Below the pieces are notes generated by a model that saw only the letters and a list, made by a program, of their open reading frames with translations, did no database searches and was not told the DNA's origin. Both the position numbers and the translations under genes were made by a program. A stretch of 64,000 bases of DNA from an uncultured Candidatus Saccharibacteria bacterium (GTDB taxonomy: Bacteria > Patescibacteriota > Minisyncoccia > UBA6257 > GWB1-50-10), in contig CAYHGT010000003.1 of assembly GCA_964356375.1 (NCBI GenBank), forward strand, positions 554-64,553, given 5' to 3'. This document shows positions 10,736 to 59,469 of the stretch, piece by piece. The first letter of the stretch is position 1. Each line of letters starts with the position of its first letter.

Positions 10736-11842
10736 TTAGTTTTTTATAGGCATAACCACATACATAAGTCCTGTTTCTATTGGGTTTTTTAGCACTGCGG
10801 GTCGGTCGGAAGAATTCACGCCAAGTACTATATCTTCGGACGAATAAATTTTGAGTCCGTCTAATAAATACCTCCAGTTAAATACTATAGAAAACACATC
10901 GCCTTTGAATTTTATTGGAATTTTATAGTGATTTTCTCCAAGCGAGGAATCCGCAGAAGATAGCTCCAAAAACTTTTTGTTTTCCCCAATTGAAATGGTT
11001 ATGCTATTTCCTCTTCCTGAAAACGCGCTTGTGAGCTTTACTGCGTTTATAAATTCGTTACGGTTGAGTGTCGCTTCGTTTTGGGTTTGTTTTGGAATAA
11101 TGGCTTTGTATTCAGGGAATACCCCATCCACAAGACGAGAAATGAGTTGGCGCGACTGTGTTTTGAAAAGAACCTGGTTTTGTTCTATAAAAATCTCTAC
11201 ATCGCCTGTATTCCCTGTTAAAAAACGAACAAGTTCTTCGGCTGTTTTATATGGAACTATCATTGAAATATCGTTTTGCACATGGAGATTTTCTATTTTC
11301 ATAATTCTCTCTGCGAGACGAAAGCTATCGGTCGCAGCAAGGATAACTTCGTTATCAAACACACGGAAAAATACACCGCTAATTTCGGGTCGTATTTCCG
11401 AATATTGTGTAGCCACAATAACGTTTTGCAATGATTCCAAAAATCTAGAAATGGGAAATTTTACTACATTGTCTTTCTCATTAATATTTGGAATAATCGG
11501 AAAATCTTTCGCGCTTTGCGCCTGAATAGTTGCTTCGTAGTTATCTGTGATTATTTCAATTTGTTTATCTTTTACCTCAAGTGATACTCGCTCGGCATTT
11601 AGGTTTTTCGCAACTGGACCAAACACAGAAACAGGGATGGTTATTTCCCCGTCTTCCACTATTTTCCCAGGAACGACTTGAGTAATCGCGAGTTCAAGGT
11701 TTGTGCATGTAAACAAAATACGACCACCTTCGGTTTTAATAAGAATGTTTTTTAATATCGGAAGATTCGCGACAGTACTCACTGCCCGCTCAACCGCATT
11801 TAACCCTTCTATTATATTATTCTTTAGTATTATTAATTTCAT
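10736..11842 (-). CDS. dnaN: DNA polymerase III beta sliding clamp
   Basis: 368 aa, three-domain clamp pattern, N-terminal MKLIILKNNIIEGLNAVERAV; located immediately downstream of dnaA. Confidence 0.9.
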   Translation of the reverse strand: MKLIILKNNIIEGLNAVERAVSTVANLPILKNILIKTEGGRILFTCTNLELAITQVVPGKIVEDGEITIPVSVFGPVAKNLNAERVSLEVKDKQIEIITDNYEATIQAQSAKDFPIIPNINEKDNVVKFPISRFLESLQNVIVATQYSEIRPEISGVFFRVFDNEVILAATDSFRLAERIMKIENLHVQNDISMIVPYKTAEELVRFLTGNTGDVEIFIEQNQVLFKTQSRQLISRLVDGVFPEYKAIIPKQTQNEATLNRNEFINAVKLTSAFSGRGNSITISIGENKKFLELSSADSSLGENHYKIPIKFKGDVFSIVFNWRYLLDGLKIYSSEDIVLGVNSSDRPAVLKNPIETGLMYVVMPIKN

Positions 11843-11849
11843 AGATAGT

Positions 11850-12038
11850 GGTAGTAGTAGGTGTTGTGAATATGTGGATATACTTGTTTTTGTAAGCTTG
11901 TGTTTGGTTTTCTTTTTCCTATCCTGTGGAAAACAAACTAAGTGGTGTTGATGATTTCTTCTTTTTTATTTTTCTCATATTTTTATACAGCAACTATCAA
12001 CATACTTATCCATCGCCTTATCCACTTATTATCCCACA
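11850..12038. promoter_or_regulatory. oriC: DnaA-box cluster (oriC candidate) in the dnaA-dnaN intergenic spacer
   Basis: Several 7-8/9 matches to TTATCCACA (tgtggata at 11873; cttatccat, ttatccact and ttatcccaca at 12006-12037) in an AT-rich spacer. Context is the canonical dnaA-dnaN arrangement. Confidence 0.5.
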
Positions 12039-13421
12039 CTACACATTTTTGAATAAAAGCTCTTTTATAAGAAGTATTTTTTGGTTAAGCGCGGAATTTA
12101 CTGTTATTTCCTTCGCTATCTTCTCATATGCATGAATCACGGTTGTGTGGTCCCGTTTCCCCATTTTTTCTCCTATATTAGGATATGAGAGCTTCAAAAT
12201 CTCCCTCAAAAGATACATCGCGACCTGCCGCGGCTCCACAACCTCCTGTTTTCTTCCTCTGTCCGTCAAATCCGACTGCGAAACCTCATAAAACTCGGAA
12301 ACCGTTCTTACCACCTCATTTGCAGTGATGTTTTTTGGAGATACTTGCGCGGTTTCGTTAATGATGTAATCAAGCTTCTTCGTGTCAATTTTCTCGTGTT
12401 TATACTGCTCATAAAACAAAACCTTGTTTAAAACCCCCTCTACCTCTCTAATATTGCGTTGTATTTTGGTCGCGATGTATTCAAGTGTCTTTTCGTCTAT
12501 ATCAACATTAAGTGCGTGTGCCTTAGTTTTTAGAATCGCGAGGCGCATCTCATAATCAGGATATGCAACATCCGCTATCATACCACCTTCAAAACGAGAA
12601 CGGAGACGCTCTTCAAGGGTTGGAATTGCGGCTGGAGGCCTATCAGACGAGATGATGATTTGTTTGTTGTTTTCGTAAAGTGCATTAAATGTATAAAAAA
12701 ATTCCAATTCAGTTGCGGGTTTTCCTCCAATGAATTGAATGTCATCAATAATGAGCATATCAACACCCCTATATTTCTTTTTCATATCCTCCGCGCGTTT
12801 GTTGCGAAGCGCCCACACCACATCGTTTACAAATTTTTCAGACGTAACATAAAGAACACTCACCTTACCGCCATATTTTTCATTTACCGCGTTGCCGGCA
12901 GCTTGAAGCAAGTGAGTCTTCCCAAGCCCAACGCCTCCATAAATAAACAACGGATTATATTTTTTCCCAACACTATCAATAACTGCATTAATAGCGGCGC
13001 ACGCAAGTTCATTTGATGAACCAACCACAAACGTATCAAACGTGTATTTTGGATTGAGATTTGTTTTTGGATCAATCTTAAGCTCGGTAATCGGAATATT
13101 ATTATTTTCTTCCGTGAGTTCTGCTTCTTTTTGTTTGTGAGATTGTTTTGCGGGCTGAAGTGGCGTGTTGTGATTTACCACCACATAGTTCACATATTTA
13201 ATAGAGCCATCAATATTGCGGAGAGAGCCCAAAATAATCTTGTGATACCGATTTTTAATCCACTCCTTCGCAAAATTATTAGGAAGCCCCACTAACGCAA
13301 TCCCCTCCTTCTCATTTTTCTCTATAAGCTGACTGTTTTTGAACCACGTTAAGAAGTTTGGACGCGAAATCTGGAGTTCTATTTCGCCAAGCACAGTCTT
13401 CCAAAGTTCTTGATGGTCCAT
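12039..13421 (-). CDS. dnaA: Chromosomal replication initiator protein DnaA
   Basis: AAA+ Walker A GGVGLGKTHLLQA and the DnaA C-terminal DNA-binding domain; 460 aa. Confidence 0.95.
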   Translation of the reverse strand: MDHQELWKTVLGEIELQISRPNFLTWFKNSQLIEKNEKEGIALVGLPNNFAKEWIKNRYHKIILGSLRNIDGSIKYVNYVVVNHNTPLQPAKQSHKQKEAELTEENNNIPITELKIDPKTNLNPKYTFDTFVVGSSNELACAAINAVIDSVGKKYNPLFIYGGVGLGKTHLLQAAGNAVNEKYGGKVSVLYVTSEKFVNDVVWALRNKRAEDMKKKYRGVDMLIIDDIQFIGGKPATELEFFYTFNALYENNKQIIISSDRPPAAIPTLEERLRSRFEGGMIADVAYPDYEMRLAILKTKAHALNVDIDEKTLEYIATKIQRNIREVEGVLNKVLFYEQYKHEKIDTKKLDYIINETAQVSPKNITANEVVRTVSEFYEVSQSDLTDRGRKQEVVEPRQVAMYLLREILKLSYPNIGEKMGKRDHTTVIHAYEKIAKEITVNSALNQKILLIKELLFKNV

Positions 13422-13739
13422 GGTGTGTTTTTAAAAAATAAAGTAAAAAATCCAGAAAAGAAAAATAAAATTGCAAACTTCCCATCTATCATATAGGTAT
13501 TCTAAAAACTTTCAATATTGATTTGTGAACCCGTTTGTGCTTTAATTGTGCACTACTTGTTGATAACGCGTTTTTTCTACCTACGGGAGATTTCCCAAAA
13601 GGGAGAGAAGACGAAACAATGGAGTGATGGCACCCCACTCCGCCCTACGGGCTTTGAGGGGTTGTTATTCGCTTCGCGAATAACAAAAATTGTGTTTTAA
13701 AAAAACGTGTGGTACTATTCCATATAAGAAAACAAACAT

Positions 13740-13874
13740 ATGAGTCAAACATATCAACCAAAGAAAAAGAAAAGAAGGAATACGCACGGGTTTTTGAAAC
13801 GAAGCAGGTCTCCCGGAGGACGTGCCGTTCTTGCGCGCAGAAGACAAAAAGGGCGCAAAAAGCTCTCGGTTTAA
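13740..13874 (+). CDS. rpmH: 50S ribosomal protein L34
   Basis: Not in the ORF track (44 aa). Translation [44 protein letters not shown] matches the L34 consensus; it sits in the canonical position upstream of rnpA. Confidence 0.9.
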
Positions 13875-14140
13875 TGGCTTTGAGCACCAACATGCCAGAG
13901 AAACACGAAGCGCCGGTTATTATCAAAAAAAACAGAAGTGGCTTCCAAAAGAAGCCACTTCTTATTACAGTTGGCAAGGGAGTCGCAAAAAAAGCGACCG
14001 AGCGAAACCTTATTAAGAGACGCATTCGCGCGATTGTTCGCGAGTCAGGCATTTTGGAGAAAGGAGATGTGACAATTATTGCGCGTCCCGCTGTCGCCAA
14101 ACTCTCATTTGCGGAATTGAAAGCATTCATAGTACACTAA
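13874..14140 (+). CDS. rnpA: Ribonuclease P protein component
   Basis: C-terminal part of the track ORF 13709-14140 (KKNRSGFQKKPLLITVGKGVAKKATERNLIKRRIRAIV...) is RnpA-like. The ATG at 13874 overlaps the rpmH stop (taATGg). The true start could be a non-ATG codon slightly upstream. Confidence 0.75.
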   Translation: MALSTNMPEKHEAPVIIKKNRSGFQKKPLLITVGKGVAKKATERNLIKRRIRAIVRESGILEKGDVTIIARPAVAKLSFAELKAFIVH

Positions 14141-14145
14141 GCAAG

Positions 14146-14829
14146 ATGTTTGCATTCTTTAACACGTATCTTTACATGCCGACCGTGTCGGCGCTTTTGT
14201 TTATTTACAACACTATCACGTTCCAAGACCTCGGTCTCGCAATCGTATTTTTAACCATCGTAGTACGCGTGGTTCTTTTCCCTGTATTTTATAAAGGAGC
14301 GAAGGACCAGGCGCTTATGCAGCGTATTCAACCACATATTAAAAAAATCCAACTGGACCATAAGGACAACAAAGAGGCGCAGGCGCGCGCAATGCTGGAT
14401 TTGTACAAAAAATATAAACTTAATCCATTCGCGGGCATTTTTTTACTCATCCTGCAACTCCCCGTCTTTATAGTTCTCTTCCAAGTATTTTCAAAAGAAC
14501 TTTCAACCGGAATATTCGCAACCACCACACTTCTCGGCTTCATTGACCTCGGCGCCAAAGGGTATGTCTTGCCGATTATCGCGGCCGCGGCGCAATATTT
14601 TCAAACAAAGTTGATGATGGGACCGCAGGCAAAAAACGCATCGAACGAAAACGACAACCTAATGGCGAGAATGGCAAAAACAATGGCAGTTGTAGGTCCT
14701 GCGTTCACCTTCTTCATTCTTGTAAATCTTCCAGCGGCGCTCAGTGTCTATTGGACAGTGTCTGGCGTCTTTTCTATCTTCCAGCAGATATATATCAACA
14801 AAAGATTGCCAAAATTTGAGGATGAGTAG
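14146..14829 (+). CDS. yidC: Membrane protein insertase YidC (short Oxa1-like form)
   Basis: Five-TM core with conserved RVVLFPV...LNPFAG...LQLPVFI motifs; 227 aa; rpmH-rnpA-yidC synteny. Confidence 0.85.
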   Translation: MFAFFNTYLYMPTVSALLFIYNTITFQDLGLAIVFLTIVVRVVLFPVFYKGAKDQALMQRIQPHIKKIQLDHKDNKEAQARAMLDLYKKYKLNPFAGIFLLILQLPVFIVLFQVFSKELSTGIFATTTLLGFIDLGAKGYVLPIIAAAAQYFQTKLMMGPQAKNASNENDNLMARMAKTMAVVGPAFTFFILVNLPAALSVYWTVSGVFSIFQQIYINKRLPKFEDE

Positions 14830-14860
14830 TATACTGAAATCCTAAAATCAACCAAAACAA

Positions 14861-15313
14861 ATGGAAACAAATACTTCTAACGAGATGAACCCCATTATTG
14901 AAAAAACCAAGGAAATAATAGCGCTTTTGGGCTACCCGGAGGCAGAGGTTGCGGTAGACGAGGAGCGTCGGAAGATAATCATCCTTATTGATGACCGATT
15001 TGTGGTTGAGAATGTTGAGATTATCCTTCCAGCAGTTGACCACATAATAAACCTCGTTCTTAAAAAGGGTGGGCTTATTCCACACATTGTTGACCTTAAT
15101 TACTATAGAAAGGAGCGGGAGCGCCTTATTGTAGAGCTTGTGAAGGCCGCGGCACGCAAAGCAACAATTACCAAAGAAGAGGTTGAGCTTCCTGCGATGA
15201 ATGGCTATGAAAGGCGCTTGGTGCACATGGAAATCACCGCGCACCCCGATTTAAAAACAGAAAGCACAGGAATGGGAAAAGAGCGACGCGTAGTAATAAA
15301 ATTTGTTTCATAA
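14861..15313 (+). CDS. jag: Jag/KhpB-type R3H (KH-like) RNA-binding protein
   Basis: C-terminal R3H-like GYERRLVHMEI motif; conserved position after yidC. Confidence 0.7.
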   Translation: METNTSNEMNPIIEKTKEIIALLGYPEAEVAVDEERRKIIILIDDRFVVENVEIILPAVDHIINLVLKKGGLIPHIVDLNYYRKERERLIVELVKAAARKATITKEEVELPAMNGYERRLVHMEITAHPDLKTESTGMGKERRVVIKFVS

Positions 15314-19218: not shown

Positions 19219-20970
19219 TTATTTTTTTAGTCCCTTAATTTCCAAGATCTGCTCGGGGTTTGTGGTGATAATCTGGTCCTCGGTGTAGGAAGCAACAATC
19301 TTAATCGCAACGTGCTTTGCGCCCGCAAAGAAAAGCGCCTCACCAATGTTTGCCTCAAGAAGGAATCCTTTCTCGCCCTCGGTTAAGCTGAACGCGCCCG
19401 CAACAACATCAATAGCCGCTGGCGACTGCTTCATAAGAATTTGCGTTGCCGAGTTAGTGATAATTGGTTTGCCATATTCTGATTTCAAGAAATCTTCCAC
19501 GTCTTGCGTGATAGTTGTAATGCCGAGGTAATATTTGCGGGCGCGCTTCACAAGCCCAAAAAGGAATGACGCGCTGTCCTTAAACTTCATCATAATCCAC
19601 GCCTCATCAACGACGAGCACGCGTTGGCGAAGCTCTGCGCGAATAAGATTCCACACGAAATTCAATACGATATACATCGCAATCGGGCGAAGTTCTTCGT
19701 CTAAATCACGAATTGAAAAAACAATGAGGCGGTTTTTAAAATCAACATTCGTGGGTGCGTTCGTAAAGCCCGCGTATGTGCCGTGTACAAATTTTTCAAG
19801 ACGTTGCGCGAGCTGAAGCCCTCCCTTTGTGTTTTGTAAAATAACCTGAAGATCCTCAAGAAGTGGAGGCTCCATTTCTTTTGTCTGGCCGAAATTGTCT
19901 GCGGTAATATCGCGCGACGCGTATGTATCAGAAAGCGCCTTATCAAGGAGAGCGTCTTCTTCGGGCGATATTACACCAAGCATCAGTTTTATAAGACCCG
20001 AGAGGTTCAAGATATGGGACTTAAATACATCCGCAGGTTCATCCCCTTCTGGAATAATAGGAATATCAAACGGATTGATATGGCTTTGCGATGTGAGCGA
20101 AATTTTGAAATAACTTCCGCCAATAGCATTGGAAAGATTTTGGTACTCATTTTCTGGATCTATTACAATCACATTTGTGCCAGTCATAAGCGAGCGCAAA
20201 ATGAGAAGTTTTGCGGTGTATGATTTACCAGCGCCAGCTTTTGCAAATACCACCTGGTTTGCATTTTCAAGCGAGAATCGGTCAAAAATAACTAAGCTAT
20301 TGTTGTGCATGTTTACGCCATACATCACACCCTTGTCGGATGTAAGGTCCGGAGAGACGAACGGAAAAAGCGAAGAGGCTGGCCCAGAATTAAGCGGTGT
20401 GTGTGTTTCAAGCTTATCTGTGCAGAGCGGAAGGACCGAATCAAATCCCTCCATCTGCTTGAAAAGCGCGGGCTTTATATAGACCAACTTACTCTGAAGC
20501 ATTGATTCTAATTGGGTTTCAAGTTTTGCGAGCGCATCCAAGCTTTGTCCATAAAGTGTGATATATACCCCAACTTTGAAAAGCTTTTCTCTCGCTTGCA
20601 TTAATGAATCGCGCAAGCTCTCAATGTCTTGGTAGGCGGTCTCAAGCAGTGGATCGCGCACCATACCCTTTGTTGCTTTTTCGTCCATTTCCGACTGGAC
20701 CTGCGCCACCTTTTTTTGGAGGTTGCGTAAAGCCCCCGCAGTTTCCATGGGATGTATGAAAATAGAGATATCCATCATCTCGGAAAGATTGATGATGGGC
20801 GAGAACCAGCCGGAAGAAACGAAGCGCGGGTATGTGAAAATGAAAACAGTTTTTACGAAATAATCACCGAGTTTCAGATAGTTCGGACTCACTTCAAGTC
20901 CCGAGGGCGCAACAATGTTTGGAAGGTCTCCAGGCGACGGCTTATATGTTTGTGGAATTTGTATCTTCAT
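19219..20970 (-). CDS. virB4: VirB4/TrbE/CagE-family type IV secretion ATPase, C-terminal two-thirds (ATPase domain)
   Basis: Walker A VVFAKAGAGKSYTAKL, the VirB4 signature DPENEY (DPKGEY-like), Walker B VLVVDEAW, and the upstream YPRFVSSGWFSPIINL VirB4 core. Its ATG is supplied by the terminal motif of a mini-element (cttctaacgggATG). Confidence 0.85.
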   Translation of the reverse strand: MKIQIPQTYKPSPGDLPNIVAPSGLEVSPNYLKLGDYFVKTVFIFTYPRFVSSGWFSPIINLSEMMDISIFIHPMETAGALRNLQKKVAQVQSEMDEKATKGMVRDPLLETAYQDIESLRDSLMQAREKLFKVGVYITLYGQSLDALAKLETQLESMLQSKLVYIKPALFKQMEGFDSVLPLCTDKLETHTPLNSGPASSLFPFVSPDLTSDKGVMYGVNMHNNSLVIFDRFSLENANQVVFAKAGAGKSYTAKLLILRSLMTGTNVIVIDPENEYQNLSNAIGGSYFKISLTSQSHINPFDIPIIPEGDEPADVFKSHILNLSGLIKLMLGVISPEEDALLDKALSDTYASRDITADNFGQTKEMEPPLLEDLQVILQNTKGGLQLAQRLEKFVHGTYAGFTNAPTNVDFKNRLIVFSIRDLDEELRPIAMYIVLNFVWNLIRAELRQRVLVVDEAWIMMKFKDSASFLFGLVKRARKYYLGITTITQDVEDFLKSEYGKPIITNSATQILMKQSPAAIDVVAGAFSLTEGEKGFLLEANIGEALFFAGAKHVAIKIVASYTEDQIITTNPEQILEIKGLKK

Positions 20971-21103
20971 CCCGTTAGAAGCGATTAACGCTTATTGTTT
21001 GTTTGTGCGACCAATCAACTGCTGTTTCCAATTTTGAAATTTTTGCCACGCGCACGACCACCGCAGGTGGTCGGCTTCTAACGGGATTCATCCCGTTAAT
21101 TAG
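20968..21103. mobile_element. Miniature inverted-repeat element (CATCCCGTTAGAAG ... CTTCTAACGGGAT, plus an adjacent truncated second terminus) inserted between the two VirB4 halves; contains a 38-aa read-through ORF (minus strand, 20975-21091)
   Basis: 14-bp terminal inverted repeats. Outward reading of each end gives TAA-CGGG-ATG. The interior is an uninterrupted ATG-to-TAA frame of 117 nt (MNPVRSRPPAVVVRVAKISKLETAVDWSHKQTISVNRF). Confidence 0.45.
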
Positions 21104-21139
21104 TGTGTCCACATTTTTTGTTATAGTTTGGTTCATTCT

Positions 21140-41728: not shown

Positions 41729-42085
41729 TTAGAGCGCGCCACCACCTGCGGGGGCAGTGAGTGTCACACCCAAGAAGCTCCTGACAATCTCCGGAATTGC
41801 AAACGCCAAGAGGCCAACCGCGATACCGACAATTGCGTAGGTAAGCATATGCTTTGCCTCATCAATTTTTGCAGTGTCACCTCCCGCGGTTAAATATTTG
41901 AATCCAGCCATAAGGATAAATATTGTTGCCACGAGGAAGAAGATAGCCATGACCCACTGCATAAAAAGCGTAACTTTTTGCCAAATGCCAGCAAGATCGG
42001 TCGGCGCGTTGCCTACAACAGCAGCAGACGCAAGCATGGGAATTAACACAAGTCCGATTATTGCGTATTTCGTAAGGTTTTTCAT
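41729..42085 (-). CDS. VirB2/TrbC-like pilin (paralog 1)
   Basis: Signal peptide followed by two hydrophobic helices separated by a short G..D.AK loop (FILMAGFKYLTAGGDTAKIDEAKHMLTYAIVGIAVGLL); 118 aa. Confidence 0.55.
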   Translation of the reverse strand: MKNLTKYAIIGLVLIPMLASAAVVGNAPTDLAGIWQKVTLFMQWVMAIFFLVATIFILMAGFKYLTAGGDTAKIDEAKHMLTYAIVGIAVGLLAFAIPEIVRSFLGVTLTAPAGGGAL

Positions 42086-42127: not shown

Positions 42128-42532
42128 TTACTGACTAAGGAAATTCGTAATAATCAGTCCGATTCCTTTAGCAAGTAAAAGTATAGCATACCCCACAACC
42201 GTCCACAATAATGCGCTCCTCGCCGTGGTGAGTTTTTCTGGCTCTCCCGCAGACGTCATAAAGAGATATGCCGCCCAGATAACCATCGCGGCTGCAACGG
42301 GTGTTGCAAACACAATAAGTCCATCAATAATTTTTCCAATGAGGTCGTTTATGTTGCTCACGCCAAGTGGATTCGGCAGGGTGACCGATGTGACCGCACC
42401 CACTGGCAATGTTTGTGCGCTTGCATGTACCGCAACGAAAAGCATCGCTAGCATAAGCACAAAGAAGATTTTTTTTGTATTATTTTTCATCCCATTAGAA
42501 GTATAAGTTTTCATCCCGTTAAAGTTTTTCAT
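42128..42532 (-). CDS. VirB2/TrbC-like pilin (paralog 2)
   Basis: Same architecture (MVIWAAYLFMTSAGEPEKLTTARSALLWTVVGYAILLL). N-terminus MKNFNGMKTYTSNGMKNN has two ATGs, each formed by a CATCCC(A/G)TTA(G/A)A element terminus. Confidence 0.55.
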   Translation of the reverse strand: MKNFNGMKTYTSNGMKNNTKKIFFVLMLAMLFVAVHASAQTLPVGAVTSVTLPNPLGVSNINDLIGKIIDGLIVFATPVAAAMVIWAAYLFMTSAGEPEKLTTARSALLWTVVGYAILLLAKGIGLIITNFLSQ

Positions 42533-42586
42533 ATGTTGATAATTTGTTTTCTACTATTGTTTATTTTTACTATAATTTTCATTATA

Positions 42587-42676
42587 CAAGTTTGTCTTCC
42601 TTCGGTAGATGTCTCATACCTTTGGTAGATCTACCGTAGGTATGACCGTAGGGACATAAAACTCTAACGGGACTTC
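42587..42676. repeat. Roughly 90-bp direct repeat copy 1 (...tttgtcttccttcggtagatgtctcatacctttggtagatctaccgtaggtatgaccgtagggacataaaactctaacgggactt)
   Basis: Near-identical copy at 43180-43269. Ends with the CTCTAACGGGA mini-element terminus; contains the GGTAGATCTACC palindrome. Confidence 0.7.
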
Positions 42677-42682
42677 GTTTTT

Positions 42683-43144
42683 TTATGTACACGTAATAGT
42701 TGCCCACGGGGCCGACACGCCCGATTGCACGAATACAGAGAGTACAGTATTCACGATTGTCCACGCGGCAACTGCAATCGCAATGCCTATAATAGCACTT
42801 GTCATAATACTCTTTGCATCAGTTAGGGTTTTCTCATTTCCTCCCGCAGCCATCATACGAATTGCACCCCACGCAATCATACCCGTTCCGATGGAGAAAG
42901 CGAGCTGAAATCCGAATGTAATGATGTTGCGCATTACAATCATTGCATCACATAAACTACACGGACCAATTGGTCCGCCGTCTGGACCAATTGCATCACC
43001 ACTACACTTGGCGCCTTCCCAAATATTTATTGCCTGCGCCTGATGCATTGGCACAAAAAGCGCGAGACCTATAAAGATAAGAAGCGAGAGCGCGACGATT
43101 TGTTTCGTCCCGTTAAAGTTTTTATAAATTAGTTTTTTTATCAT
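42683..43144 (-). CDS. VirB2/TrbC-like pilin (paralog 3)
   Basis: Same architecture (MIAWGAIRMMAAGGNEKTLTDAKSIMTSAIIGIAIAVAA) plus a Cys-rich insert. N-terminus ...KNFNGTKQ retains the element-derived motif with ATG changed to ACG. Confidence 0.55.
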   Translation of the reverse strand: MIKKLIYKNFNGTKQIVALSLLIFIGLALFVPMHQAQAINIWEGAKCSGDAIGPDGGPIGPCSLCDAMIVMRNIITFGFQLAFSIGTGMIAWGAIRMMAAGGNEKTLTDAKSIMTSAIIGIAIAVAAWTIVNTVLSVFVQSGVSAPWATITCT

Positions 43145-43179
43145 TGATGATTTCTTATTTTTCTACGATTTCCGCCCTA

Positions 43180-43269
43180 CAAATTTGTCTTCCTTCGGTA
43201 GATGTCTCATACCTTTGGTAGATCTACCGTAGGTATGACCGTAGGGACATAAAACTCTAACGGGACTTA
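43180..43269. repeat. Roughly 90-bp direct repeat copy 2
   Basis: See copy 1 (42587-42676). Confidence 0.7.
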
Positions 43270-43277
43270 TGCCTTTA

Positions 43278-44597
43278 TTATAAACTTTTTTGTCTAAAGA
43301 TGTCATTTACCTCGCTTACCGCCTGCTGGGCTGATTCATAGACGGAAAGTTTTTTGGAAACCGCATTGTCTATCATACGCGAAAAAATATCTCGTACGGT
43401 TCTATCGTCTGGCTTCGGCCACGAGCGCGCAATGAGCGCGGAACGCGCGAAGACGCTCATCACGGGGTCATTCAAATTTTGGTTGATGAGCGAGAGAAGC
43501 GCGGGTGGCGTGTTCATTACCCCGAGATACATATTGGCAATCGTTAGATTTGTGGTGAGCGCTAAGATGAGTTTTTTTGCCGCGTCATTTTGTTTCGTCT
43601 GTATGGAAACCGCGAGACCGTAGTAGAATGGATGAGTAACGGCGAATTTTTTGGCTAATGTTTCTGGTTGCGGCATCGCCGTCACACCGAAATTCAAAAA
43701 CGAATTTTTTGTACGAATCGCATTTACGTCCGAAAGATAGCCGAAAATCATTGCAACTTTTTCCTGGCTAAATGCATCAATAGAATATTGCATCGCATCA
43801 TTCCAGGAGTAGGTGCTATTTGTTGAATCTCCAAACTGTGTATAGAATGCAAGCGCGTTTCTTCCTTCTTCGGACGAGAATAGGGCACCAGAAAATCCAG
43901 GATCTACCATCTTAGTACCTGTCTGGAGCATAAGTGTGCCAAGTATATCGGATGCATTTTTCACATTTTTTTCTGAACCACCAAGCGTGCTCGCTGCAAT
44001 AAGAACCGTGCTTGTGCTCGTCTTATTTTTTACATCTCTCTTCACGAGTTTGGGCGTAATATTTTTAAACTCCTCCCATGTAGTAGGTGGAAATGGAATG
44101 CTAGCGGCATTCAGCATGTCTTTGTTATAGATGAGTACAAGCGTATCAATAGAGAGTGGAAGCGCATATACCTGCTCTTTCTGCACAAATGTCTGTGTGA
44201 CGGTCTGTGGGAAAAGCTGGTCAACTTGTGCCAAGGAGATTGCGCTAGCCGAAAAAGGTATTATTTTATTCGCGAAGCGCGGAAAGCTTTCATTCGCGAC
44301 CATAAAGATGTCCGGACTATTTCCAGAGGCAAATGCTTCAAGGAGTTTTGATTCATAATCTTCTTGCGTATCAAACCCGCGATACGCCATTTGGATATTT
44401 GGATACGTTTTTTTAAATTCAGCGAGCGCATCGCTCCATTGTCCTATGTCGCGTCCCACGCCCCACATTTTAAGATTTGCCTGAATAGCGGTTAGTTCCG
44501 CTTTTTGGAATCCAGGGAGCATGCCGAAAGCCATAAGAATAAAAACAAGCACCAAAAAGCCGCCAACGCCGATAATAATTAATTGGTTCCGAGTCAT
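43278..44597 (-). CDS. ABC-transporter extracellular solute-binding protein (family 1-like)
   Basis: N-terminal TM/signal anchor; about 410-aa periplasmic-binding-protein-like region. Its ATG start codon is formed by the terminal CAT of a mini-element end (CATCCTGTTAGAAG). Confidence 0.6.
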   Translation of the reverse strand: MTRNQLIIIGVGGFLVLVFILMAFGMLPGFQKAELTAIQANLKMWGVGRDIGQWSDALAEFKKTYPNIQMAYRGFDTQEDYESKLLEAFASGNSPDIFMVANESFPRFANKIIPFSASAISLAQVDQLFPQTVTQTFVQKEQVYALPLSIDTLVLIYNKDMLNAASIPFPPTTWEEFKNITPKLVKRDVKNKTSTSTVLIAASTLGGSEKNVKNASDILGTLMLQTGTKMVDPGFSGALFSSEEGRNALAFYTQFGDSTNSTYSWNDAMQYSIDAFSQEKVAMIFGYLSDVNAIRTKNSFLNFGVTAMPQPETLAKKFAVTHPFYYGLAVSIQTKQNDAAKKLILALTTNLTIANMYLGVMNTPPALLSLINQNLNDPVMSVFARSALIARSWPKPDDRTVRDIFSRMIDNAVSKKLSVYESAQQAVSEVNDIFRQKSL

Positions 44598-44697
44598 CCT
44601 GTTAGAAGTATAAGTTTAATTTATTTTCGACTGATTTGTGCTGTGTGTGTTCTTGCGTTTTATTCATATTTCTCGTTTTGAGACCTCTAACGGGACG
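44595..44697. repeat. Inverted-repeat mini-element copy D (CATCCTGTTAGAAG ... CCTCTAACGGGACG)
   Basis: Terminal inverted repeats; interior start (TATAAGTTT) shared with the copy at 42488. Confidence 0.5.
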
Positions 44698-59365: not shown

Positions 59366-59469
59366 TCAATCCCGTTAGAGATGTCAGAATATCAAAATAC
59401 AAAAGATGCGGTCATCTCAAGCTGTGTTAATAAATGAATGTCTAAAAGACTAATATCTCTAACGGGATC
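59366..59469. repeat. Inverted-repeat mini-element copy C (TCAATCCCGTTAGAGATG ... ATCTCTAACGGGATCAA)
   Basis: Perfect 14-bp terminal inverted repeats; 104 bp; located in the promoter region of the 58604-59350 operon. Confidence 0.55.

Follow-up and report, generated by a model that had tools for sequence, protein, structure and literature searches.

A probable miniature of a Patescibacterial GIY-YIG element on the virB4-C start codon in a Candidatus Saccharibacteria genome

The genome of an uncultured Candidatus Saccharibacteria bacterium (assembly GCA_964356375.1, contig CAYHGT010000003.1) carries a short insert bounded by inverted repeats between two genes for the halves of VirB4, an ATPase of the type IV secretion system (T4SS). 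We analysed 64,000 nucleotides (nt) around it (positions 554 to 64,553 of the contig, hereafter the window, with positions counted from its first letter) and consider it likely that the insert is a non-autonomous miniature, together with a decayed remnant, of a Patescibacterial mobile element that encodes a GIY-YIG nuclease, sitting on the start codon of virB4-C within a split of virB4 that was already in place. This reading is carried by the architecture of the element family, the covariation within its folded ends (P1 and P2), duplications of 2 base pairs (bp) at its flanks, the presence or absence of inserts among relatives, and the placement of elements on start codons co-oriented with host genes.

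The virB4 junction and its relatives

The virB4 locus is a tandem of a remnant and a miniature, laid out as follows (aa, amino acids; ORF, open reading frame; slashes within sequences mark element boundaries):

21778 to 21140, minus strand: virB4-N, the gene for the N-terminal domain; 212 aa, stop TAA at 21142-21140, with PF26593 (TraC-like) matched on the identical product
21133 to 21136, minus strand: first ATGA, whose ATG opens the 53-codon candidate relay ORF 3 nt past the virB4-N stop
21092 to 21132, minus strand: degenerate remnant of an earlier element copy, 41 bp (ACCAAAC...CTAATTAACGGG), with ATGA on both sides (21136-21133 and 21091-21088)
20969 to 21087, plus strand (canonical orientation, antisense to virB4): ORF-less miniature element, 119 bp, with terminal inverted repeats at 20969-20982 and 21074-21087
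21055 to 21073, plus strand: P2-like hairpin CGACCACC-GCA-GGTGGTCG, directly 5' of the plus-strand right inverted repeat and preceded by CACG
20975 to 21136, minus strand: 53-codon ORF across remnant and miniature, in the same frame as virB4-N; its TAA (20977-20975) is followed by CGGG and then the virB4-C ATG
20970 to 19219, minus strand: virB4-C, the ATPase gene; 583 aa, Pfam P-loop_TraG/AAA_10/DUF87, with orthologues of 583 aa at 75-89% identity
virB4 junction minus the insert: a precise empty site would read ...AAAGAATGA/AGATAC

The inverted repeat of the miniature is perfect over 14 nt (ATCCCGTTAGAAGC and GCTTCTAACGGGAT) and encloses 91 nt; its last two bases are the first two bases of the virB4-C ATG, and a GA dinucleotide flanks the miniature on both sides (minus strand 21089-21088 and 20968-20967). 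The right end of the remnant agrees with the family right end, CTCTAACGGG/ATGA. An earlier, sequence-only reading of this DNA had described an inverted-repeat element between the virB4 halves and a TAA-CGGG-ATG junction, all of which are present, and its truncated extra terminus upstream is real, forming part of a tight palindrome (TAACGGGAT-ga-ATCCCGTTA, 21079-21098). The 38-aa frame that it reported from the ATG at 21091 also exists, as the distal part of the longer 53-aa ORF starting at 21136. No Pfam family was matched by this ORF, which on its sequence is a candidate translational relay and not a conserved protein. The DNA of the insert is identical across four independent assemblies, so that it is not an assembly artefact, and the contig occurs in four samples (ERR3858112, ERR3858111, SRR32696695 and ERR3654040). 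By Pfam, the context is that of a T4SS (PrgI, TraC-like N domain, VirB4 ATPase and pilins), and the T4SS cluster adjoins dnaN, dnaA, rnpA, yidC and jag (window 10736-15313), that is, it lies beside the presumed replication origin.

For comparison, we used 76 species-representative genomes of Paceibacteria type in which both the N and the C part of virB4 were found by tblastn. Separate N and C ORFs meet at exactly this point in 69 of the 76 genomes and are fused in the other seven, and the junctions of relatives are mostly ATGA overlaps or gaps of 1-35 nt. A protein search with N and C joined gave many matches of 582-595 aa that cover the C part only (75-89% identity) and a second class of fused proteins of 780-807 aa (~58-62% identity); a fused homologue aligns contiguously over the junction, and the break falls in a variable linker. 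Judged from these comparisons, the split of virB4 into an N-domain gene of ~210 aa and an ATPase gene of ~583 aa appears to be an old, conserved gene fission, the junction often being an ATGA overlap. In the nearest relatives the split is found without the insert: in L165 (89% identity) the N and C ORFs have 29 nt in common (...CATCATCAA ATGA AAATACAAATCCC), in L005 (80%) they are 10 nt apart and in L006 (78%) 2 nt apart, and over all the empty split junctions (L165, L005, L006 and L009-L013) the ORFs overlap or are separated by 1-28 nt. The element thus arrived at a gene boundary that was already there, at the ATGA that starts virB4-C, and not within a coding region as the sequence-only reading had supposed; the alignment of orthologues across the junction that it proposed shows most relatives to be split there, the nearest of them without any insert.

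In L007 (76% identity), an element with the same termini as the window copy fits exactly into the interval from the N stop (TGA) to the C start (ATG). This copy is opposite in orientation and closer relatives are empty, which indicates independent insertions at one site. Small elements of another kind are also found at this place: a 23S_rRNA_IVP (PF05635) gene of 119-126 aa with inverted repeats of its own occupies the N/C junction in L018:9563-9995, L037:9555-9983 and L064:9465-9971, and palindromic spacers of 70-140 nt in L029, L052, L054, L055, L058, L059 and L063 resemble ORF-less miniatures of the 23S_rRNA_IVP type, the repeat of the L052 spacer being similar to that of L037. The virB4 N/C junction thus appears to be a hotspot for elements bounded by inverted repeats.

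A GIY-YIG element family with folded ends

A partner element with ends identical to those of the miniature is present in many related genomes. Its full copies, of ~285 bp, read ATGA/ATCCCGTTAGAG...CTCTAACGGG/ATGA (also given as ATGA/ATCCCGTTAGAGAY...RTCTCTAACGGG/ATGA), and their sole product is a GIY-YIG nuclease of 85-95 aa with a single domain (PF01541 alone). The 14-nt terminal inverted repeats are at the same time the first codons of the nuclease gene (MNPVRD, ATG AAT CCC GTT AGA GAY) and its last (SLTG-stop, TCT CTA ACG GGA TGA). In L010, a 94-codon ORF bounded by the same repeats encodes such a nuclease (PF01541, E 1.2e-15) and is followed in tandem by a miniature, the right end of which supplies the start codon of PrgI. 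The nuclease family comprises more than 4600 protein clusters (E<1e-5), all of them named as lineages of Patescibacteria type, and its ends (MNPVRD... and ...RLKRFLSLTG) are conserved; the nearest solved chains are the UPF0213 proteins 1zg2 and 1ywl, and the nearest plasmid match is of yazA type. A metagenome scan yielded 80 loci and 72 left/right end pairs with a common architecture, and 63 distinct copies, when aligned, prove near-invariant in their terminal DNA while interior synonymous sites vary. Full copies sit ahead of many unrelated host genes. In many of them (L085-L164), ATG AAT CCC GTT AGA GAT runs directly into TAA, TAG or TGA and the nuclease starts at an ATG 6-10 nt later, so that the repeat forms a six-codon upstream ORF and not an N-terminal extension.

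Literature searches on GIY-YIG with Patescibacteria, Candidate Phyla Radiation (CPR), miniature inverted-repeat transposable element (MITE) or terminal inverted repeats turned up no description of this element, and a search on YhbQ found nothing; the family is apparently undescribed. A 2024 survey describes insertions in CPR rRNA genes that are not introns and contain GIY-YIG ORFs (PMC11270868); these may be the same kind of element. In viral contigs, the paired-end pattern gave no matches, and the left-end 16-mer gave two chance matches without a right end or nuclease.

The ends of the full elements are constrained to pair. P1, formed by the terminal repeats, is a helix of 14 bp in which 99.4% of the alignment cells are paired and four pairs are compensatory, and P2, in which GGAAACGCTTTAA pairs with TTAAAGCGTTTCC abutting the right repeat, has 13 bp, 96.5% of cells paired and seven compensatory pairs. 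P2 joins the RKRF-coding segment to the LKRF-coding segment beside the right end, and the compensatory changes in both helices fall on synonymous positions. None of 500 shuffles reached the observed values, and controls in which the segments were slid dropped to 28-48% paired. Five miniatures (L007, L010, L097, L123 and L140) carry TACGG and a short hairpin directly 5' of the right repeat, the stem of which covaries (GGAAGCG/CGCTTCC, GGATGCC/GGCATCC, GGTCGCC/GGCGACC and GTCCCGC/GCGGGAC); because TACGG and the covarying P2 hairpin are kept, these miniatures are internal-deletion derivatives with P1 and a shortened P2 that have lost the gene. When the interiors of miniatures and full elements were compared with an nhmmer profile, no significant homology was seen outside the termini.

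In the window, the hairpin at 21055-21073 corresponds to the covarying P2 helix in full elements and to the hairpins of the miniatures in L007, L010, L097, L123 and L140. Its position beside the repeat at 21074-21087 identifies the plus strand as the canonical orientation of the miniature, which thus runs antisense to virB4 and in the reverse direction to the L007 copy. The virB4 miniature folds as P1 plus P2 both as DNA (-26.5 kcal/mol, z -4.68) and as RNA (-51.4 kcal/mol, z -4.13). In Rfam searches, the only matches above the gathering score in the window were tRNAs, and L007, L010 and L097 gave no element match at E up to 1. A reading of the 38-aa ORF (MNPVRS...) as a relic of the GIY-YIG frame was rejected: the miniature runs antisense to virB4, and a symmetrical repeat is by itself enough to produce the MNPVR codons.

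Marks of mobility are seen in the flanks. The dinucleotides on the two sides are identical for 71 of 109 end pairs, and if GA/GA pairs are set aside, 57 informative pairs remain, of which 19 agree where 5.8 would be expected (P<1e-4); the shared dinucleotides are varied (CA, TG, AG, TT, CT, AA and GG). Where copies stand in tandem, exactly 2 nt lie between them. The window inserts at the virB4-C start and at the start of jag (R3H) are both absent from L165.

Further copies are scattered over the window, which bears out the MITE-like, multi-copy inverted-repeat element of the sequence-only reading. Allowing up to three mismatches, the terminal 14-mer occurs 16 times, against 4.4 expected and with none of 100 shuffles reaching 16, and the majority of these matches pair as inverted ends ~100 nt apart. 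The 64 kb hold at least eight element copies, plus lone ends, spaced 3-13 kb apart among housekeeping genes; away from virB4 they are:

14874 to 14887, plus strand: right end CTTCTAACGAG/ATGA on its own, where the R3H (jag) gene starts; a remnant of the insert absent from L165
33668 to 33770, no strand assigned: 103-bp miniature, intergenic, flanks TCA/A...T/CA
42488 to 42673, minus strand: 161-bp copy (42513-42673) that, with an additional right end (42488-42501), precedes a T4SS pilin gene
43107 to 43266, minus strand: 160-bp copy ahead of the next pilin paralogue, with an interior like that of the 42513-42673 copy
44596 to 44696, minus strand: 101-bp miniature whose right end CTTCTAACAGG/ATGA gives a solute-binding-protein gene its start
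48438 to 48535, no strand assigned: 98-bp miniature in a divergent intergenic region
51517 to 51617, plus strand: 101-bp miniature whose right end CTTCTAACGGG/ATGA gives ftsH its start
59369 to 59468, no strand assigned: 100-bp miniature, intergenic, flanks TCA/A...T/CA

The copies at 42513-42673 and 43107-43266 have a common interior of ~80-90 nt unlike that of the remaining copies, and each precedes a member of a tandem set of three T4SS pilin paralogues (41729-42085, 42128-42532 and 42683-43144); these ~160-nt copies may have been duplicated along with the pilin genes. Integron attC sites were considered, as the end motif resembles the RYYYAAC/GTTRRRY core sites, and were ruled out by the 3-13 kb spacing, the context and the pairing of the ends as one element. 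Elsewhere in the window, a tRNA-Ile with anticodon TAT, an unusual bacterial isoleucine decoder (53504-53576), adjoins tRNA-Val(TAC).

Start codons, relay frames and a proposed mechanism

The elements are placed on start codons, and with the host gene in the same orientation. Of 74 distinct full copies, 56 have a right end that creates an ATG or GTG, and in 47 of the 53 cases with enough sequence this start opens a co-oriented host ORF of at least 60 codons, compared with 31.5% of all ATGA; an upstream ORF ends in the TGA of the left ATGA in 11 of the 74. Upstream of the left ATG (L085-L164), a Shine-Dalgarno-like sequence is rare (6/44), and in about a third of cases a -10-like TAnnnT hexamer starts 12-14 nt before the left ATG, which suggests that many host genes captured by the element are leaderless.

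The reading frames of the termini fit such a placement. In the nuclease frame, the right end TCTCTAACGGGATGA reads TCT CTA ACG GGA TGA, with the stop overlapping the host ATG; in the second frame it reads CTC TAA CGGG ATG, with the stop 4 nt ahead of the host ATG, as the sequence-only reading had noted of the termini; and in the third it reads AAC GGG ATG and continues in frame into the host ORF. At the left end, ATGAATCCCGTTAG, one frame has TGA, another has TAG, and the third is open from the ATG. With a right end that is safe in all frames and a left end that stops two frames and opens the third, ribosomes would be handed to the host ATG. Among the six miniatures with start codons at both ends, five (the window copy, L007, L010, L091 and L097) have an ORF that opens at the left ATG and closes with the TAA in the right repeat, against 1.28 expected from shuffles of the interior. 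The relay ORF in the window takes the in-frame option through the remnant and the TAA option at the miniature, and no promoter-like site was found on the virB4 (minus) strand inside the insert.

Termination followed by reinitiation, where stop and start codons lie close together, is well established in bacteria. In the model that we propose, ribosomes arriving from an upstream gene, or from a captured start codon, would be passed to the host ATG by this route; in the window, the path would run from the TAA of virB4-N over 3 nt into the 53-codon ORF, and from its TAA over 4 nt to the virB4-C ATG. The translational coupling envisaged by the sequence-only reading is accordingly retained in part: the element-spanning ORFs give the relay comparative support and make its use here plausible, and what falls away is the notion that the element split virB4. 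As for movement, the nuclease would recognise the ends in their P1/P2 fold, probably on DNA that is single-stranded or extruded, by analogy with the Ssn nucleases and their hairpin repeats, and would cut at the boundary between repeat and flank, full copies being moved in cis and miniatures in trans.

A broader proposal, which we put forward tentatively and hold to be somewhat less probable than its converse, is that these elements form a previously unrecognised class of minimal DNA transposon, with a bare GIY-YIG catalytic domain of ~85 aa as its sole protein and folded ends P1 and P2 inside the coding sequence of that nuclease, a transposon that occupies the start codons of host genes and maintains their expression by means of relay ORFs and of termini safe in all three frames, the Ssn/NTS-type systems being its domesticated relatives. 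If mobile as proposed, the elements, at ~285 bp, would be among the smallest autonomous DNA elements and would be transposon-like elements powered by a GIY-YIG domain alone, and selfish spread would provide a rationale for the newly described Ssn-type pairs of nuclease and repeat. Nesting on start codons and stop/start overlaps, with ends that keep translational coupling, would allow ultra-compact Patescibacterial genomes to tolerate repeats. For annotation, short MNPVR... ORFs and 'split' genes in Patescibacteria should be judged with such elements in mind, and element variants are candidate nuclease/DNA-structure pairs for single-stranded DNA (ssDNA) tools.

Several observations weigh against the interpretation of the virB4 insert as a product of this mobile family, or against parts of the model. 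One full copy, P0200, is found at a single locus in every contig read (L168-L173), upstream of ruvX with a 4-nt ATGA overlap and ahead of a pilM/pilN cluster; since its locus is fixed, full copies can be stably inherited and are perhaps domesticated. Many copies lack a flank duplication. The remaining miniatures of the window are diverged and mostly without a strong P2, and much of the family here may be fossil; a GIY-YIG gene was not found in the 64-kb window, which leaves trans-mobilisation in this genome hypothetical. The relay-ORF statistic comes from only six miniatures, some of them related. Finally, G.U and A.C mismatches in the helices are equal in number (22 and 22), giving no sense-RNA signal, which weakly favours pairing as DNA over pairing as RNA.

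Alternative explanations and known systems

The alternative that survives best, and which we nevertheless regard as unlikely, is that of a domesticated repeat system instead of an active transposon, in which nuclease and repeats serve the host, as proposed for NTS/SsnA of Neisseria, and the virB4 copy is passive and old. Such a system might restrict incoming ssDNA in transformation or conjugation, or act as a signal for RNA processing or structure. Modulation of natural transformation by Ssn/NTS in Neisseria, the fixation of P0200 upstream of ruvX in many samples, the divergence of most window copies and the proximity of elements to T4SS and pilin genes would all fit it. An insertion polymorphism between relatives at 89% identity, independent copies of opposite orientation at one junction, 2-bp duplications of varied dinucleotides, tandem arrays and the placement at many unrelated genes do not; each of these requires past mobility, on top of which domestication could be layered.

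Two further explanations seem to us very improbable. The first, the model of the sequence-only reading, has a MITE inserting into an intact virB4 and turning it into two translationally coupled genes; the insert does lie exactly between N and C, and fused virB4 exists at ~60% identity, but 69 of 76 relatives are split there, and the nearest among them, together with L009-L013, have empty junctions, which refutes the model. The second, with equally little to recommend it, is an inverton, in which a recombinase acting at the repeats would flip a segment of ~90 bp and thereby switch virB4-C and other genes. It would account for 14-nt inverted repeats around a short segment upstream of several genes and for the internal orientation differing between the window and L007; however, the virB4 strand of the segment has no promoter-like sites, in full elements a nuclease gene is enclosed by these repeats, which are also accompanied by flanking duplications, and the interiors of the copies are unrelated. 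Least credible of all is that virB4 is decaying or that CTTCTAACGGGATG is this organism's generic ribosome-binding leader, both raised earlier. Both are refuted: the two virB4 ORFs are intact and highly conserved, with the same sequence in all four assemblies, and the motif, though it abuts five start codons in the window, does so among 111 ORFs of at least 90 aa and is missing from the orthologous starts of L165.

We return to the reading of the virB4 insert as a miniature and remnant of a GIY-YIG element, and set that family beside the systems it most resembles. The virB4 miniature shares with MITEs, such as the Correia elements of Neisseria (short, ORF-less, multi-copy MITEs with terminal inverted repeats and a short duplication that lie near gene starts), its small size, lack of an ORF, copy number, terminal inverted repeats, 2-bp duplication, ends in common with a coding partner (found in related genomes) and position near gene starts. 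In contrast to these, the enzyme of the partner is a GIY-YIG nuclease instead of a DDE transposase, compensatory changes show the two ends to be under constraint to pair with each other, and insertion is exactly on start codons. The Rickettsia palindromic elements are likewise palindromic, of ~100-150 bp and tolerated in compact genomes; they reportedly lie in frame inside protein-coding genes, are translated and become part of the protein, whereas the virB4 miniature lies between two separate ORFs with stop/start junctions.

Resemblance to the IS200/IS605 insertion sequences and to repetitive extragenic palindromes with their transposases (REP/RAYT) consists in a small element, an enzyme for folded hairpin DNA (which the Patescibacterial nuclease would be) and abundant ORF-less palindromic derivatives. 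Those systems use HUH Y1 transposases and subterminal hairpins, without terminal inverted repeats or duplication, whereas the Patescibacterial element has a GIY-YIG domain only, terminal repeats and 2-bp duplications. Free-standing GIY-YIG homing endonucleases, such as the Seg proteins of phage T4, are also encoded by intergenic selfish genes; they have DNA-binding domains and one cognate target locus, whereas the Patescibacterial nuclease is a bare catalytic domain found at many unrelated loci.

The closest described system is that of the Ssn GIY-YIG ssDNA nucleases with their hairpin repeats. In the portions of the report by Chenal et al. (Nat Commun 2025, PMC11893778) drawn on here, Ssn is described as a single-domain GIY-YIG protein of ~94 aa that cuts only ssDNA next to a hairpin repeat (NTS/SRM), and its genes as flanked by NTS/SRM repeats that occur in hundreds of copies, the authors noting an architecture like that of insertion sequences and suggesting domestication. 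Common to both are a single-domain GIY-YIG protein of ~90 aa, hairpin-forming repeats on both sides of its gene and repeats that are multi-copy and gene-proximal. The published degenerate SRM motif had no matches in the window and none in the 63 full elements. Unlike those of Ssn, the Patescibacterial repeats pair over a long range as terminal inverted repeats and supply the nuclease gene with its first and last codons; in addition, a second internal long-range helix is present, and the nearest solved or annotated relatives of the nuclease are of UPF0213/YazA type. Flank duplications, empty sites, miniatures and start-codon placement, all found in the Patescibacterial family, are not reported for Ssn in those portions of the same report (PMC11893778).

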